Of a DNA stretch of 64,000 nt, positions 32,741 to 40,114 are shown piece by piece; the first letter of the stretch is position 1, and each line of letters starts with the position of its first letter. The notes beneath the pieces were generated by a model. It searched no databases. It was not told the origin of the DNA and saw nothing but the letters and a program-made list of their open reading frames with translations. The position numbers and the translations under genes are program-made. Origin of the DNA: Alphaproteobacteria bacterium (GTDB lineage Bacteria > Pseudomonadota > Alphaproteobacteria > SHVV01); NCBI GenBank assembly GCA_965261735.1, contig OZ253470.1, forward strand, positions 384,001 to 448,000, in the 5' to 3' direction.

Positions 32741-32858
32741 TCTATTCCGCCGCCTTCATCTCTCGGGCTTGTGCCGGTGCGGGAACCCTCGTCGACGAAC
32801 GAACCCGAGCGGTCTGTCCGTCGTCAGATGATTTGCGACAGGGTTGTGCCGACATTGT

Positions 32859-34212
32859 CATGTATGGACGCCCCCGGTGTTGCAAGGGGAAAACTGATTT
32901 GAATCGGCGGTAGAGCTTGCAGTCATGTATCCGGCCTTTTCGCTGCGGTACGCTGACCGCTGGCCCTGATGGAATCCGAAAGATCGACGCCCAGTCAGAC
33001 TAACGAGCTTGATGCTCGGACAATGCCTCGGGTTTGGCCGATCTCGGGTGGAACCCTGTTTCGCCATCAAATCGTCGTCACCCTCGCAATTTGATCCCGG
33101 TTTGCCAGCTGGCTATGCCGGCGTCGGTCGGTAGATACGCTCGTACCTGAGCAGTGCCCAGGCGACACGGGCTGCCTTATTGGCCATGGCGACCAGCACC
33201 ACGTTTGTCGGCCGCCGCGCCAGGAGCCGGTCGGTCCAGCCAGGCCCCGTGCCCGGCTTGGCGCGGCGCCAGCGCAGCACGGTTCGCGCACCATGCACGA
33301 GCAAGCGCCTGATATAGCCATCCCCGCGCTTCGATATCCGTCCCAGTCTATCCTTGCCGCCACTCGAGTGCTGCCGGGGCACCAGACCGAGCCAGGCCGA
33401 AAGCTGTCGGCCCGAGCGGAACTGTGCGCCATCGCCGATCGTCGCGACCAGCGCCGTCGCGGTGATGACACCGACGCCGGGGATCGTCGCAAGACGGCGG
33501 CTCGCCTCGTTGGAGCGGTGCCATGCCAAAAGCGTCACTTCCAGCTGCTTGATCCGGGCCTGAGCAGAACGGAGCTGCTCAACCAGAGAGCCAAGCGCCT
33601 CGCGTGCCAGAGGCGGCAGTCGCACATCGCCGGGATCTTCGATAATGGCAACCAGTTCCTCCACCTTCGACGCCCCCTGAGCGACGATCAGTCCGAACTC
33701 CGCACAGTGGCCGCGCAGCGCATTGATCACCATCGTGCGTTGACGGACCAACAGCTCTCGGGCCCGGTGCAGCATCAGAACCGACTGCTGCTCGGCGCTT
33801 TTCGCCGGTGCAAAGCGCATCGTCGGACGCGTCACTGCCTCACAGATCGTTTCCGCATCCGCTGCGTCGTTCTTATTCGTTTTGACGAAGGGACGAACGT
33901 ATTGAGGCGGAATCAGCTGAACTTTGTGCCCGTGTGCTTGCAGTTCCCGAGCCCAATAGTGCGCAGAGGCACAGGCTTCCATACCGACAAGACAGGATGG
34001 CAATCCGGCGAAGAACGCCAGCACCTTCCCGCGGCGCAGCTTCCGCCGTAGTACCGGTCGTCCCTCACCATCAGCACCGTGAACCTGGAACACCGTCTTT
34101 GCCAGATCGAACCCAATTGTCGTAATATCCATCGTGGACGCTCCCTCTGTCTGGGTTGTTCAACACACTCCAGTATGGCTCATCGTGAAGCCGTAGGGGG
34201 CGTCCATACCAT
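32859..34212 (-). mobile_element. IS1111-subgroup (IS110 family) element 1; recombinase 33113-34132
   Basis: DEDD motifs (GFDLAK, MEAC, KNDAADA); 'SSGGK' catalytic Ser; subterminal IRs gtatggacgccccc; TG core at both junctions. Confidence 0.93.
32880..33112 (-). ncRNA. Putative bridge/seek RNA of IS1111 element 1 (boundaries approximate)
   Basis: Segments at 33019-33027 and 32994-33003 match the flanks; 32967-32972 and 32923-32930 match the circle junction. Confidence 0.75.
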
Positions 34213-34283
34213 CAGACCAACTGGGTCGGACCTGCAAGACCTACAACCAAGCGGCCTCAGGCTCCCGCCAACTCATGAACCAC

Positions 34284-34311
34284 ATTGGCCCGGCGCCGGC
34301 GCCGGGCCAAT
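34284..34311. repeat. Perfect 28-bp palindrome
   Basis: attggcccggcgcc|ggcgccgggccaat. Confidence 0.9.
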
Positions 34312-34341
34312 CATGTTTCGGCTGCCGCCGTGGACCAGTAG

Positions 34342-34894
34342 AATTCCCTGTTCTCCCGAACAAAATCCCTGTTCGCTCGAATGAATTCCCTGTTACATAG
34401 TTTAGGGAATTGGACCGAAAACACTAGCGTTTCTGCCATGTTTCAAACACAGGAAAGCTTCTGAATCCCTGCAAAAGAGAAAATTTTCCTGTAATTTCCC
34501 TGTTAAACAGGGAATTGGCCTCAGAGACGAGTTCGCGGGAGACTGCCTGCACAGCCAGCCACCCCGGCGAAGCAGTCTCTTCATCGCATAGCTCGGCCAA
34601 GCCGCGGGAAACAGGGCCCGTTTCGCGGTCAAACGGAATTCTGAGCTCCTGAACCCGGGAGCATTTCCGGCCATTGCCGGGGTTCCCGGCGTGCGGTCTC
34701 CGCGAGCGCGATGCAAGGGTGAGTTTGGTGGCAACAGGGAATTTTTGCGATTACGGCCTCAAAACAGGGAGATTGTAGCGAACTGCCGACCAAAATGAAG
34801 AAATTATCTTTTTTTATCAATGACTTCTGAACTTTCCTGTTTTTCTGCAGAAGGGCAGTCGATATCAGGGAAGCAAATGAAGGGAACAGGAAAT
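34342..34894. repeat. Array of WWTCCCTGTT / AACAGGGAWW boxes downstream of the serine recombinase
   Basis: CCCTG at 34346, 34367, 34388, 34467, 34498; inverted boxes near 34403, 34449, 34506, 34610, 34733, 34763, 34864, 34885. Confidence 0.85.
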
Positions 34895-34945
34895 AATCCG
34901 GCCCGTCTTGCCGTAGTCGAGTGAGCGGGATGTGGGTGCCAATCC

Positions 34946-36535
34946 CTATTCCGGCGATGTTGCAATTCCGATTTGGACGGCTTGTTGCGACCAGGCGAGC
35001 GGTATTGGGCCCTTGAGGAGCTGTGTCAGTGTTACCCCTGCGGATTGGCGACCTTCAACAATCGCTCTTTGGATCTCCGGTGCCAGAAAGGCCAGGCGAA
35101 CGAGCTGGCGGCGATAGGGCGTATCCGGTGCTGTGACGAGCACGGGCAATCCGCCATCATCGTGGTGCAGCATGGCGTGTGCGGAGCGGAGCGCCTTGAC
35201 CAGAACAGGGTCCGGCATGTGTCCCGCACTTGGGCCCTTGAGAACCCAGGTCTCGCCACGACGCCGGACAAGGGGCAGATGCAGTCTGGCGAGACGCGCA
35301 TCCACAGGATCCGGCTCGAGGCGTTCGTGCGGCTCGAGGCGCTGGCGCATCGCGACGATCCGGTCGATCGGCAGCAAGCAGTGCAGCGACTGATCGTGGA
35401 GCTCGGCGCGGACAACAAGCGTGATGGGATCGTCCGGACATCCCGCGATCACGCGACGCAGCACGGTCGCGAGGGCGACTTCGAGCGGTGGGGCGGATAT
35501 GCGCCGGATGGCTGTGTCGGATGGATCGCGCCTTGCCCCTTGCTGCAGCGGTGCCGAGACATAGTAGCGATAGAGCCTGCCACCCCGCCCATAAGAGAAG
35601 GTCGGCGACATCGGCCGACCATCCGCGTCGAAGAGGCGCCCGGCCAGAGGGGCATTCGCCTTTTGCTCGCGATTCGATGCCCGGCGGCGGGTGTTCGCGT
35701 CGAGCCGCGCCTGGACGGCCGCGAAGAGATCGCCATCGATGATGGCCTGGTGCCGGCCGGGATGCGCCCTCCCCTTGTGGACGATCATGCCGCGATAGAC
35801 TCTGTTGCGCAGCAGTTGAAAGAGCGCGCCACGACTGAACGGCCGGCCGCCGGATAGTCGACCCGCCCGCGTCACGCGCCGCTTCGAACGGATGCCCCGG
35901 TCCTCAAGCCATCGCTGCAGCGCGTGCACGGAGCCGAGATCGATATAGGCCCCGAAGATGGTGCGCACGATCTCGGCCTCCTCCTGGTTGACCGCCAGGG
36001 CGCGCGTGCCATCCCCAGGCGGGTCGTAGCCAAGCGGCACAGTGCCGCCCATCCACATGCCCTTGGCCTTGGAGGCCGCGATCTTGTCGCGTATGCGCTC
36101 GCCCGTCACCTCGCGCTCGAACTGCGCGAAGGACAAGAGCACGTTCAGTGTCAGGCGGCCCATGCTGGTCGTGGTGTTGAAGGCCTGGGTGACGCTGACG
36201 AAGCTGGCCCGGCGGCGATCGAAGATCTCGATCATGCGTGCGAAGTCGGGCAAGGACCGGGTCAGGCGGTCAATCTTGTAGACGACGATGACGTCGACCT
36301 TGCCGGCTTCGATGTCGCAGAGAAGCCGCTTGAGCGCCGGGCGCTCCATGGACGCGCCGGAGAAGCCGCCATCGTCGTAGCGGGCCCGGACTGCTCTCCA
36401 ACCTTCGCCGGCCTGGCTCTTCACATACGCCGCGCAGGCTTCGCGCTGCGCATCGAGGGAGTTGAACGCCTGCTCAAGGCCTTCCTCGCTGCTCTTCCTC
36501 GTATAGAGGGCGCAGTGGAGACGGGGCCGGCTCAT
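34946..36535 (-). CDS. Large serine recombinase (resolvase + recombinase domains)
   Basis: 'CALYTRKS...NSLDAQREAC', 'VYKIDRLTRS', 'SFAQFERE', 'WMGG..PLGY'; ATG overlaps the upstream stop. Confidence 0.93.
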   Translation of the reverse strand: MSRPRLHCALYTRKSSEEGLEQAFNSLDAQREACAAYVKSQAGEGWRAVRARYDDGGFSGASMERPALKRLLCDIEAGKVDVIVVYKIDRLTRSLPDFARMIEIFDRRRASFVSVTQAFNTTTSMGRLTLNVLLSFAQFEREVTGERIRDKIAASKAKGMWMGGTVPLGYDPPGDGTRALAVNQEEAEIVRTIFGAYIDLGSVHALQRWLEDRGIRSKRRVTRAGRLSGGRPFSRGALFQLLRNRVYRGMIVHKGRAHPGRHQAIIDGDLFAAVQARLDANTRRRASNREQKANAPLAGRLFDADGRPMSPTFSYGRGGRLYRYYVSAPLQQGARRDPSDTAIRRISAPPLEVALATVLRRVIAGCPDDPITLVVRAELHDQSLHCLLPIDRIVAMRQRLEPHERLEPDPVDARLARLHLPLVRRRGETWVLKGPSAGHMPDPVLVKALRSAHAMLHHDDGGLPVLVTAPDTPYRRQLVRLAFLAPEIQRAIVEGRQSAGVTLTQLLKGPIPLAWSQQAVQIGIATSPE

Positions 36536-36945
36536 TTGGCGGATCGGAGGCCGAAGAAGCGCGGGCCATTCCAACGCGTGCCCGCGATCGCGGTCGCGGC
36601 CGCGGAGAGGCTCTTGAAGAGTTGACCCCCGTGGCGAAACCCCTCTTCTTCGACCGTGACCTGGACGATCCGCCCCCGCCATTCACGCCGCAGCGTGGTC
36701 CCGATCCCGAGCTCAAGACCTTCTGCCTGGACCCGCTGGCGGCGCTTGAGCTGGCGCCGTGTGTCACGATCGAGACCGCCGAGAGCCTCTGCCTGCAACC
36801 GCCAGGCCAGACAATAACGCAACAGCGCGGCCGAGCGCAGCTTCGGCGGGACACCGTAGCGGTTGCGCCAAACCTCTCGAAGCCCTTCGAGACCAAGGGG
36901 CGTGAGCGCCTCGATCTCGTCCGCAAGCGGCGCCTCGCCGGTCAT
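36532..36945 (-). CDS. DUF2924-like protein
   Basis: 'LAWRLQAEALGGL', 'GTTLRREWRG', 'SLSAAATAIAGTRWNGPRFFGL'. Confidence 0.85.
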   Translation of the reverse strand: MTGEAPLADEIEALTPLGLEGLREVWRNRYGVPPKLRSAALLRYCLAWRLQAEALGGLDRDTRRQLKRRQRVQAEGLELGIGTTLRREWRGRIVQVTVEEEGFRHGGQLFKSLSAAATAIAGTRWNGPRFFGLRSAK

Positions 36946-37238
36946 GTCACCGGTTGCTCGATGCGGTAGCGCCGCAGGCCCCCTTCTTTCTCGGACCGGA
37001 TGACGTGGCCCTTGCGTCGCAGCGCACCGGCGAGCCCGCCTCGAACCGAATGGGGCTGCCAGCCCGTTGCCTTACAGAGTTCGGCGATGGTCGCGCCGCC
37101 CGGGGCACTGAGATGGGCGACGAGAAGAGCGAGCTTCGTGGTCCCCGGCGGCTTCAGAGCTGTCGCCTTTGAGTTCTTGCGGTTGGTCGCCTTCGCAGCG
37201 CGCGATCCCGACTTTTTCCTTAACGGCTTGTTGGTCAT
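36942..37238 (-). CDS. DUF3489-like winged-helix protein
   Basis: 'TKLALLVAHL..PGGATIAEL..ATGWQPHSVRG'; RBS ggaggag; basic N-terminus. Confidence 0.85.
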   Translation of the reverse strand: MTNKPLRKKSGSRAAKATNRKNSKATALKPPGTTKLALLVAHLSAPGGATIAELCKATGWQPHSVRGGLAGALRRKGHVIRSEKEGGLRRYRIEQPVT

Positions 37239-37427
37239 GGTGTTCTCCTCCGGTATTGCGGCGCAGATCGGCGCCGCTACCGGGGCAAGCCCGGGGTGGC
37301 CGGGCGTGGTCGCACTGACGCTCCTTTGCGCCGGCAAGTCCAGTGCTCTTGCACGACTCGGCGACTGCAACAGCCCGGCCTTACAGCGTCGAGCTCCGCA
37401 TTCAGGACACGTTCCGACAGCCCTTTC

Positions 37428-37992
37428 TTCGAGGCGTCGTCGCGGCCAACCATGCGCTTTGTAGCTGTGAAGACGGAGGAACAGCAGGCTCGGGGCAGGG
37501 AGTATGAGAAGCTGGCTCGGCAATGTGCGGCGGAGAATGCCGATCATGTCCGGTACCTGGCGCGCTTGATCGAGTTGGAGCTGATAGACCGCGAAGCCCG
37601 CATGGTCGAGCGACGCATCAAGGCGGCGAGGTTCCCTTCGATCAAGAGCCTGGAGAGTTTCGGCTTCGATGCGATCCCCACACTCAACAAGAAACTGGTT
37701 GTGGATCTGGCCCGCTCGGATTTTGTCGATCCACACGAGAACGTCATCGCGCTTGGCCCCAGCGGTGTCGGCAAATCCCATGTCGCCATCGCCCTGGGCG
37801 TGGCGGCATGCCAGCGAGGCATAAGAACCCGCTTCGCCACCGCCGCCGTGATTGTGCATGAACTCATCGAGGCCCACGACGAGAAGCGGCTCTTGCGCCT
37901 GCAAAGGCAACTTGCCAGCCACGAGTTGCTGATCATCGACGAACTCGGCTTCGTTCCTCTCTCGAAGACTGGCGCCGAGCTATTGTTCGAAC
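37428..37992 (+). pseudogene. Chimeric remnant: IS110 fragment fused in frame to istB, then cut by IS1595
   Basis: 'RPTMRFVAVKTEEQQARG' (as in the ORF at 55550) joined to 'REYEKLARQCA...GPSGVGKS...IIDELG'. Confidence 0.85.
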
Positions 37993-38212
37993 CTTGCCTA
38001 TCCGGTTTACACCCACACCCACTAGGGCTAGAATGGGCGCAAACCGGATATAGGGGAGCGCGCCATGGATGTTCTCGACCGCGCCGATCTCCCATTCCCG
38101 CATTCGCTACCCGAGTTCCAGCGACTTTTCCCCGATGATGCGGCCTGCGCCGCCTACCTGGAGAAAGCCCGCTGGGGAGACGGCTTTGCCTGCCCGCACT
38201 GCGGCACGGCGG
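37993..38212 (+). mobile_element. IS1595 left-end fragment
   Basis: TIR cttgcctatccgg and 'MDVLDRADLPFP...CPHCG' shared with the 45628-46657 element. Confidence 0.9.
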
Positions 38213-38457
38213 GATCGCCGCCGACAGGATCGGTGCGCCCGGATCGCCGGCAACAATGCCATTCCGCGCCACCAACGCCGCCAATTGGTCCTCAATCATC
38301 CTGATCGGCGCGAAGATGGCCGTCCAGTCGAAGGCGAATTGCACGTCGAGCGGTTTCGAGTCACGCTCGACGGGTTGGGAGGGTTCCATATGGGGAATCC
38401 CGGTTAAAGATCGCGCAAATCAAGGACGAATAAGATCGGGTTAGCTGGAAGGTCAGA

Positions 38458-40114
38458 ATGACAGAGGATGAAAAGAACGCGGAAAAGCTGCGGGTGCTTG
38501 AGCGGTACTCAGAACTGCAATCCACTATCGAATGCCTTCGCAGTCGGATTCTTCGGTGGCACGGCTATCTTTCGCAGGTCTATACCAATATCGAAGGTGT
38601 GAGGTGGCCTCGGTTTGTCGGACAGCTTGGCGGCTTGATTAAGGTGTATTCCAGTTGTCGTTCATGCCGCCAGAATCCCTTTGCATCGATCTCCTTGCCG
38701 TTGTTGTTGCGCCTGTGGGGATGTGGGCAAGGCGCGTAGCGGCTTGTCCATCATATCCACAGGCGGGGCGCCGCGGTAGGCCTCGGCCGGCGTTTCCCCC
38801 CCGAGCGCCGAGTGCGGCCTCTCGGTGTTGTAGAAGTCGATCCACTCGCCGATGACGCGCCGGGCCTCGAAGCCGTCGGCGAGCTCGCGCAGATAGACGG
38901 CCTCGTATTTGAGCGAGCGCCACAGCCGCTCAATGAAGATGTTGTCCAGGCACCGGCCCCTGCCGTCCATCGAGATCCGGATGCCGGTCTCCCGCAAGCG
39001 CCCGGTGAAGGCGAAGCCGGTGAACTGGCTGCCCTGGTCGGTATTGAAGATCTCCGGCGTGCCATGGCGGGCCAGCGCCTCGTCGAGCGCGTCTGTGCAG
39101 AAGCCCGCATCCAGGGTGTTCGACAGACGCCAAGCCAGCACATGCCGGTTGGCCCAGTCCATGATCGCCACCAGGTAAAGAAAGCCGCGCCGCACCGGGA
39201 TGTAGGTGATGTCGGCGCACCAGACATGGTTCGCCCGCTCGATCGTCAAGCCTCTGAGCAGATAGGGGTAGACCCGGTGCTCGGGATGCGGATCGCTGGT
39301 GCGCGGCGCCCGATAGATCGCCTGAAGCCCCATCAGGCGCATCAGACGACCGGCCCGGCGACGACCGACGCGCACGCCCTCGCGGCGTAGATGACGGACC
39401 ATCTGACGGGCGCCGTAGAACGGATACTTCAGGAACAACTCATCAATGCGCCGCATCAGCGCCAGGGTCTCCGGGCTCTCGCCCTTGGGCGTGTAATAGA
39501 GCGAGGAGCGTCCGATCGACAGCAAACGGCATTGACGGCTCAAGCTCAGCGCCGGGTGAGCGCGTATCACCATCGTTCGCCTCTCGGCCCGGCTCATCGA
39601 CCGGACCCTCGAGACAAAAAATCCCGCTCCACCGTCAACTCGCCGATCTTCGCGTGAAGATCACGGATCTCGCTCTCATGGTCCCGACGGCGGCGCTCGC
39701 CCCCGTTCGAAAACACTTCGCCAAGACCATCGATCGCCTGCCGCTTCCATGTGCTCACTTGGTTCGGATGAACCTGGTGCTGCGAGGCGATCTCCTGAAG
39801 CGTCCGGTCGCCACGAAGCGCCTCAAGCGCGATCTTCGCCTTCAGCTCCCCGGAAAACCTGCGTCTCTTACTCATCGCGTATCCCTCCTCAGTCGGCGGA
39901 ATACACCTTAAAAACCTGTCCGATTTTCCGGGGCCACCTCAGTGCCAAGGGCCTAGCCGACTGCATGCCGTTGCTGGATAACGTCGTTGAGGGAGCTGGT
40001 GATGTGCGGATCGTTGTCGACATTGATGGCTTGTCAAAGGCGATCCACGAGCGCCGCCAATTGGAAGAGTCGCTCAGGCGCATGAATCTCGGGGCGCTGA
40101 TACAGAGGCCCTAG
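38458..40114 (+). pseudogene. Small hypothetical gene split by IS3
   Basis: MTEDEK...NIEG resumes in frame as AKGLADC...LIQRP after removing the IS and one GTG copy. Confidence 0.65.
38600..39941 (-). mobile_element. IS3-family element copy 1 (orfA 39594-39875, orfB 38662-39597)
   Basis: TG..CA TIRs tgaggtggcc; 3-bp TSD GTG; rve DDE motifs. Confidence 0.95.

Follow-up and report, generated by a model that had tools for sequence, protein, structure and literature searches.

Attachment sites of the lambda type, which serve tyrosine integrases acting with Xis and IHF, combine a short core with arms that carry repeated sites unlike the core. After integration the arms end on attL and attR, and the target is the end of a transfer RNA (tRNA) gene. 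In res sites, one recombinase binds the crossover and the accessory sites alike, and the accessory sites look like crossover half-sites. The Tn3/gamma-delta and Sin res sites have been described as a serine recombinase crossover site with accessory sites that build a regulatory synapse (PMC2428073). The locus described here lies in a 64,000-nucleotide (nt) stretch from an Alphaproteobacteria bacterium (assembly GCA_965261735.1, contig OZ253470.1, positions 384,001 to 448,000 of the forward strand; the whole stretch is called the window). It consists of a large serine recombinase gene, two small genes upstream encoding DUF2924 and DUF3489 proteins, and an array of CCCTG boxes past the recombinase stop.

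For large serine integrases, only a pair of short sites (~40-50 bp) is described as necessary (PMC12286644), and it is this reputation, of a single protein acting on two short sites, that makes them valued tools. According to the 2014 Islander account, whose search was limited to tyrosine integrases, serine integrases were not known to target tRNA genes (PMC4383910).

The nearest named record to the window recombinase is phage AcaML1 of Acidithiobacillus (JX507079; Gp5-Gp4-Gp3-Gp2), with 43.9% identity over residues 2-392. It too has small genes upstream of the recombinase, in the same order; its recombinase, unlike the one here, is divided in the annotation into a large and a small subunit. 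The ends of the AcaML1 record share CCACCATTTA, preceded by tRNA-like ...GGGTTCGGTTCCGTGTTCCGCCACCA, with a CCACCA repeat. This integration module is known to us from annotation only, and we know of no functional study of it. The recombinase of phage WO (Wolbachia) is a distant homologue, with ~33% identity over 93-94% of the protein. In phage WO, a DUF2924 gene has been reported directly upstream of a recombinase (PMC10299305), and integration into a magnesium chelatase gene or intergenic DNA has been described (PMC9203015); the available portion of the latter account makes no mention of tRNA and describes no arm arrays. No description of the recombination system reported here was found in the literature, supplements lying outside the search, e.g., Table S3 of PMC8627217 (Mesorhizobium elements with serine integrases).

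A Predicted Unsplit Attachment Site Beside a Three-Gene Module

Sequence comparison indicates that the box array is not a free-standing iteron field: its boxes make up both arms of an attP-type site that is unsplit and has its core at 34539-34579. The segment from 34243 to 37387 is probably an intact integration module, with its attachment site unsplit (i.e., attP-like) and all its genes open. The module comprises three minus-strand genes: the DUF3489 gene (36942-37238; 98 amino acids (aa); Pfam PF11994, E 3e-21), the DUF2924 gene (36532-36945; 137 aa; Pfam PF11149, E 3e-37), and the large serine recombinase gene (34946-36535; 529 aa; Pfam Resolvase PF00239, E 1.3e-37, and Recombinase PF07508, E 7.7e-16). 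None of the three contains an internal stop. The initial annotation had the genes joined by ATGA overlaps, and the plus strand indeed reads tcat at 36942-36945 and at 36532-36535.

The array travels with the three-gene module in at least six copies and three distant paralogs in this genome (G000). Copy B (4.40 Mb) was 94% identical to the window module and copy C (229 kb) 91%, and copies A, D, E, and F were partial. In the three distant paralogs the recombinases were ~58% identical and the three-gene order was kept.

The core attachment site, delimited by sequence comparison (34524-34579), begins with the motif GAGACGAGTTCGC (34524-36) and contains a perfect 8-bp inverted repeat, GAGACTGC at 34539-46 and GCAGTCTC at 34572-79, with its dyad centre at ~34559. 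A tRNA-Gln-like end, CAGCCA, lies within the core at 34552-57; the dyad centre falls one or two bases beyond the position equivalent to the tRNA end. As a predicted feature, this dyad-symmetric core resembles a serine-integrase core site, sequence comparison puts the crossover inside it, and we infer a position of ~34557-34560.

Split forms of the site were found elsewhere. Copy C is homologous to the window from 34552 onwards; directly to the left of that point stands a complete tRNA-Gln(CTG) gene, ending in ...CCCCCAGCCA; the window reads ...CACAGCCAGCCACCCC where copy C has the tRNA-Gln end. A sister genus (L023) has the same tRNA-Gln junction. One metagenome contig switches to tRNA-like sequence at 34552 as well; the run is an RNA library, and the contig is not evidence of transcription. 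Two of the distant paralogs (family 2) adjoin tRNA-Ser genes, ...CCCTCCGCCA being joined to CACTTAAG, and the unsplit form of this family reads ...GACTGCGTCCTCCGCCACACTTAAG. An isolated left arm at 459 kb ends in ...CCACCGCCA, followed by unrelated DNA, and resembles attR. In a sister-genus genome (G002), one element was found at the same tRNA-Gln and another at tRNA-Met. The left arm of the tRNA-Met element, 56 kb away, carries the tRNA-Met end (core GGCCCACCA); the right arm and a recombinase remnant of a second element come immediately after it. Tandem elements such as these yield a chromosomal junction that is unsplit and attP-like, as it is in the window.

Core and tRNA matched in 3/3 cases: CAGCCA with tRNA-Gln, CCGCCA (family 2) with the two tRNA-Ser junctions, and GGCCCACCA with tRNA-Met. 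Altogether, an element end lying at an intact tRNA 3' end and matching the attP end was found for the family (copy C and L023 at tRNA-Gln, family 2 at tRNA-Ser twice, and G002 at tRNA-Met), not for the window copy. When the left half of attP was compared with the tRNA T-arm, a clear match was limited to the last 6-8 nt, and no claim is made for a wider mimicry of the T-arm. A family-2 element with an apparent span of ~93 kb (G000:C1 1879.9-1973.5 kb) was also observed; tRNA-Ser(CGA) and the recombinase mark one end of it and a left arm the other, with 90 bp of a further right arm beyond.

At least 585 recombinase relatives turned up when one genome per species was scanned, and 79 loci were kept. 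Downstream sequence reached 700 bp or more in 69 of these; a tRNA gene convergent with the recombinase lay 176-802 bp beyond its stop in 38 relatives (from other Alphaproteobacteria) and was missing in the other 31. The targets among the 38 were tRNA-Ser (20), Gln (10), Met (2), Thr (2), Val (1), Arg (1), Leu (1), and Ala (1). Of 80 loci from IMG/VR, 49 had at least 500 bp downstream; a convergent tRNA lay past the recombinase in seven of these. The window module likely belongs to a group of integrative elements of Alphaproteobacteria whose insertion point is the extreme 3' end of tRNA genes.

The CCCTG Box Array

About 15 boxes had been proposed past the recombinase stop; a regular expression for WWTCCCTGTT or its complement returned 14 (34343-34894), and two further degenerate boxes were recognized by eye at ~34610 and ~34880. 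The exact 21-bp spacing given earlier for the first three boxes was recovered (TCCCTG starts at 34345, 34366, and 34387), as was the head-to-head pair, which reads TTCCCTGTT-A-AACAGGGAA at 34496-34514. Boxes on the left are mostly in plus orientation and those on the right mostly in minus orientation, in agreement with the bias previously described. The region had also been called AT-richer over ~550 bp. This is accurate for both box-bearing arms (GC content 0.445-0.50) and inaccurate for 34500-34799 (0.585-0.625).

The boxes are clustered far beyond chance. The shorter motif TYCCTGT had 21 matches in the 64-kb window, 11 of them inside 34345-34892; shuffled windows had a mean of 9.49 matches, and 0/100 shuffles reached 21. 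Across the 5.03-Mb genome there were 678 matches, and chains of at least four occurred in 11 places, every one a copy of this element family.

The left (P) arm contains two sets of boxes. The distal set comprises three direct plus-strand boxes 21 bp apart (34343-52, 34364-73, and 34385-94) and an inverted degenerate box (34401-10), and it recurs at ~-158, -136, -116, and -100 from the palindrome centre in the arms of other genomes. The proximal set (34484-34515) comprises two direct boxes 11 bp apart and the head-to-head palindrome, centred on 34505. The spacer holds two additional boxes (34448-57, reverse; 34464-73, forward), which were present in the window copy and in copies A and D and lie outside the conserved layout. 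In the right (P') arm the boxes are mostly inverted (34733-42, 34763-72, 34864-73, and 34885-94), with one forward box at 34832-41, and span ~+178 to +330 from the dyad centre.

Repeats with sequences unlike that of the core were thus located on arms flanking the core at fixed distances, as in lambda-type sites. There is a looser functional resemblance to res sites, with a mismatch on one point: the box (TTCCCTGTT) differs from the core half-site (GAGACTGC).

The number of boxes in the right arm varies because a box-bearing tandem unit of ~21 bp (TTCTGCAGAACAGGGGNTCTT, window ~34850) differs in copy number: it is present once in the window, about eight times in copy A (G000:C1 4293.4-4293.6 kb), twice in copy B, and three times in copy E. 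Metagenome contigs also end in ~21-bp box-bearing tandem units, at 34850-34852. Outside the left arm, a segment at 34243-34342 is common only to copies A and D. Just outside the first box it holds a perfect 14+14-nt GC-rich palindrome (ATTGGCCCGGCGCC/GGCGCCGGGCCAAT, 34284-34311), which is kept with changes in copy A.

Conservation of the Arms Among Relatives

The phased triple box TCCCTG-N15-TCCCTG-N15-TCCCTG was found in 26 of 401 sampled genomes of the class, compared with 1/401 for the reversed control. Six of the 26 were plain tandem repeats. Nineteen of the remaining phased-triple-box loci and eight arms from this genome gave 27 arms for examination. The proximal palindrome was present in 21 of the 27 (by regular expression), and a GACTGC-type motif lay 31.5-35.5 nt past the palindrome centre in 19 of those 21. 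Box positions relative to the palindrome centre were -16, -6, and +6, with an inverted box at ~-100 and direct boxes at ~-116, -136, -158, and sometimes -180. The interval from the palindrome to the tRNA-like CCA end, measured by eye, was 41-45 nt and contained a conserved GAGACGGGTTCGC..CAGACTGC. On this comparison, the left-arm layout recurs almost base for base in many families. A viral contig (L149) carried an unsplit site with the identical layout.

In the second arm, the relatives nearest the window had a GTCTC motif ~18-24 nt past the tRNA end, a CAGGGA at ~+178-190, and phased boxes at ~+298, +321, +342, and +362 from the tRNA end. At least three exact boxes were found in 10 of 40 tRNA-adjacent right arms. 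In a de novo count made with no prior motif, a box variant was the commonest 7-mer downstream of the recombinase in ~19 of 73 relatives.

Three viral contigs (L159, L172, and L174) have the entire arm-plus-core unit turned round with respect to the recombinase gene, so that the palindrome and phased boxes lie between the core and the recombinase stop. This orientation is an argument for a role of the unit in recombination, as opposed to operon transcription.

The initial annotation had tied the array to the recombination system, and this link is borne out: the array flanks the predicted crossover, travels with the module, and recurs at fixed spacing in other families. It had also held that absence of the array beside homologous modules would speak against the idea; in the clade nearest the window, the array is there. 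Features that it had not noted are the dyad-symmetric core with its tRNA-like end, the targeting of tRNA genes, the presence of the module in several copies, and the attP-like, unsplit state of the window copy, which is not the end of an integrated element.

DUF2924 was detected in 97 of the 401 sampled genomes (a count that includes the unpublished G046 and G245). By arm content, it was found in 12 of 17 arm-bearing genomes and in 85 of 384 others (one-sided Fisher p 4.7e-5, a value that overstates the association because related genomes are not independent). In the IMG/VR loci, a DUF2924 tblastn match was found upstream of the recombinase in 49/49. These counts suggest that DUF2924 is the constant partner of this recombinase clade.

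Predicted Proteins

The recombinase has the catalytic domain of the large serine integrases. Residues R13, S15, R65, D89, R90, and R93 were invariant or nearly so in 48 sequences, and the predicted model (predicted local distance difference test (pLDDT) 87.2) aligned to the TP901-1 catalytic domain with Z 17.8 and a root-mean-square deviation (rmsd) of 2.4. The Recombinase domain (PF07508) follows a long helix, and model residues 146-391 aligned to A118 (4kis_B) with Z 14.3. Profile matches were obtained to TP901-1 (1e-31) and SprA (5e-18). Over longer spans the fold matched Bxb1 (9iu2_A; residues 6-396; Z 19.2) and SprA (Z 18.2), and the solved integrases aligned over ~2-396.

Past the Recombinase domain the protein departs from these structures. 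A CxxC motif was found there in 0/48 family members, and there was no Pfam zinc-ribbon match; the equivalent region (~300-395), zinc-ribbon-like but free of cysteines, can nevertheless be aligned with Bxb1 and SprA. In the model, helices after residue 290 reach at most 15 residues (348-362), no long helix pair is seen at the place of the canonical coiled coil, and the clade appears to be without a long coiled coil. Residues ~396-529 (~130) form an extra C-terminal domain, modelled as a sheet with short helices, which no solved integrase covers. In the 48 sequences, L484 and W515 of this domain were invariant, and L481, P486, G495, P512, and Q518 were nearly so.

The DUF2924 model (pLDDT 86.7) consists of a helical N-terminal half and a C-terminal beta/alpha domain. 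Residues 73-137 aligned to the CcrM C-terminal domain (6pbd_B) with Z 6.9, rmsd 2.1, and 62 aligned residues, and the C-terminal half aligned to the MPND RAMA domain (7ydt_A) with Z 5.7 over 63 residues at 29% identity. From these models, the C-terminal half resembles RAMA-type DNA-binding domains. A partial match of DUF2924 to the RAMA DNA-binding domain has also been reported (PMC11342252). The DUF2924 profile had 0 matches among PDB sequences at E <= 1.

DUF3489 is a probable winged-helix domain with a basic N-terminal tail. Its family-2 paralog had weak matches to MarR_2 and HTH_IclR, and the only match among PDB sequences was an ArsR-family protein at E 0.3. DUF3489 was not detected beside six box-bearing arms (L024, L040, L049, L052, L062, and L090). 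In two genome contigs (L049 and L079), a DUF5681 protein occupies the usual DUF3489 position upstream of DUF2924.

State of the Window Copy and Its Surroundings

The module is bounded on the left by an IS110 element (~32847-34225) and on the right by an IS21 fragment, IS denoting insertion sequence. The neighbours had been described as mostly broken. Of the two that were looked at, this suits the right one, an IstB match covering only profile positions 14-177 of 238, and not the left one, where the IS110 transposase is a full 339-aa open reading frame. The upstream region of the operon, kept among copies and presumed to hold the promoter, spans 37239-37387 on the minus strand; homology among copies stops raggedly at ~37354, 37365, and 37387. 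A scan for promoters and terminators gave nothing informative beyond a single weak promoter-like match, and Rfam returned only a chance-level snoRNA match (E 0.11) on 34100-35000.

Because it is unsplit, IS-bounded, and ragged at its homology end, the window copy is best read as the surviving junction of a decayed, possibly tandem, element. Its unsplit chromosomal state would most likely have arisen by tandem accretion of elements followed by IS-driven decay. The public runs yielded only short contigs of this multi-copy element; no contig in them spans the stretch and no excision joint was seen. A single X1 contig skips 161 bp (34772 to 34934).

The genome is very IS-rich, since a 1.34-kb insertion sequence (window 38600-39941) has at least 12 genomic copies at 99.8-100% identity and the IS110 element (window 32847-34225) has at least eight. 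A repeat of ~230 bp (window 37990-38220), which resembles a miniature mobile element, occurs in well over 100 near-identical copies genome-wide (97-99% identity). Two IS110-family elements, one in the window (33113-34225) and one at copies B and E (G000:C1 ~4401.7 kb and ~4361.9 kb), are ~65% identical to each other, and both lie just outside left arms with the transposase 5' end towards the arm. That they mark a shared target beside left arms was considered and rejected, as their distances to the first box differ (~120 bp and ~25 bp). As intact and partial copies of a site-specific recombination system, the modules are candidate drivers of rearrangement in this genome.

Proposed Mechanism and Alternative Readings

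The CCCTG boxes are, we think it likely, arm-type accessory sites on which a recombination complex is built. Recombinase dimers would bind the core and the tRNA end, and an element-encoded protein would bind the phased boxes and wrap the arms into a higher-order complex. The boxes would lie on one face of the helix because of their 21-bp spacing, and the ~100-bp gap between the proximal and distal sets would allow a loop. Such a complex could distinguish attP, attL, and attR from the bare tRNA site. It would also supply the direction control that canonical large serine integrases get from their coiled-coil motif.

Several observations weigh against this arm-site reading. The window copy is not beside a tRNA gene and has no attL/attR partner, and may for these reasons be inert. 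A far end for copy C at tRNA-Gln (attR, a left arm with a Gln-type core) was found in neither G000 nor G002 except as the unsplit copies. Fewer than three exact boxes were present in 30 of the 40 tRNA-adjacent right arms and fewer than four in 44 of the 49 viral loci; the boxed arm of such box-poor relatives is assumed to sit, perhaps, at an unsampled far end. Neither end of AcaML1 carries TCCCTG boxes, and 5 of the 17 arm-bearing genomes had no DUF2924 match. The fold matches of DUF2924 are middling (Z 5.7-6.9), Foldseek returned nothing for its model at E <= 0.001, and the absence of a coiled coil is read from a predicted model only. In the literature, no binding or recombination experiment was found for any family member.

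The identity of the box binder is proposed with less confidence than the role of the boxes. The initial annotation gave the boxes to the two DUF proteins together; the lack of a detectable DUF3489 at six boxed arms is a pointer to DUF2924 or the recombinase. DUF2924 is the leading, if tentative, candidate; the recombinase's own extra C-terminal domain has a distinctly smaller chance of being the binder, DUF3489 a smaller one again, and a host factor is improbable. One elaboration of the second option, which we regard as unlikely, has the recombinase read the candidate arm sites through residues ~396-529 with a dual specificity like that of lambda Int, leaving DUF2924 and DUF3489 only as regulators or directionality factors. 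The short helices of this domain could form a helix-turn-helix, the domain is conserved over the 48 sequences in a region that solved integrases do not cover, and the box motif is equally invariant across the clade; DUF2924, however, shows an equally universal linkage and contains a domain similar to known DNA binders. It is more doubtful still that DUF3489, through its winged helix, binds the boxes as an excisionase-like architectural protein while DUF2924 contacts the recombinase only. A small winged-helix-like protein whose tail is basic and whose gene is translationally coupled to the two others of the module would suit such a role, yet it went undetected at the six boxed arms, where it could be too diverged or encoded elsewhere.

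A different kind of explanation makes the array an iteron origin or centromere of an excised circle, as raised in the initial annotation, or an operator field, and has it merely sit beside the attachment site. Direct, helically phased repeats in AT-richer DNA with a palindrome are indeed what plasmid iterons, parS, and operators offer. This explanation is nevertheless very improbable, because integration splits the array between two ends, the 3.1-kb conserved unit holds three genes only and no replication or partition gene, and the arm-plus-core unit is found inverted in some relatives. The distance between array and crossover is, moreover, fixed within a few bp across families. An operator has the further difficulty that the right-arm boxes lie between convergent tRNA and recombinase genes, with no promoter there to control, and that the promoter scan gave but one weak match.

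Comparison With Known Systems

If the arm-site reading is true, a large natural branch that needs arms and partners would change how large serine integrases are mined and tested. The ends of tRNA genes would then also be a target of serine recombinases, a target class so far credited to tyrosine integrases. Tools built on the Islander assumption may overlook many islands, given the presence of DUF2924 in 97/401 genomes of the class. A bolder proposal, for which we would claim a real but not a prevailing chance, is that a lambda-like "intasome" dependent on arms arose independently in a widespread branch of serine integrases, with DUF2924 (RAMA-type) or the extra domain reading the 21-bp-phased boxes of both arms. 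This arrangement would replace the zinc-ribbon and coiled-coil logic and permit tRNA ends as targets.

Compared with res, where the outcome is resolution, the present system would perform integration and excision. A lambda-type attP works similarly to the site described here, although the enzymes are unrelated in catalytic family and in chemistry; the present site has longer arms, with 21-bp phasing. The canonical integrases (Bxb1, PhiC31, A118, TP901-1, and SPbeta SprA) share the catalytic and recombinase domains with this protein, and their cores are likewise dyad-symmetric (~40 bp). The family described here differs from them in having no zinc-binding cysteines (0/48), no long coiled coil (in the model), and an extra C-terminal domain, together with a constant DUF2924 partner, targets at tRNA 3' ends, and ~570 bp of flanking phased boxes. 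The phased boxes are conserved on both sides of the predicted crossover, although such recombinases are usually described with short, simple sites.

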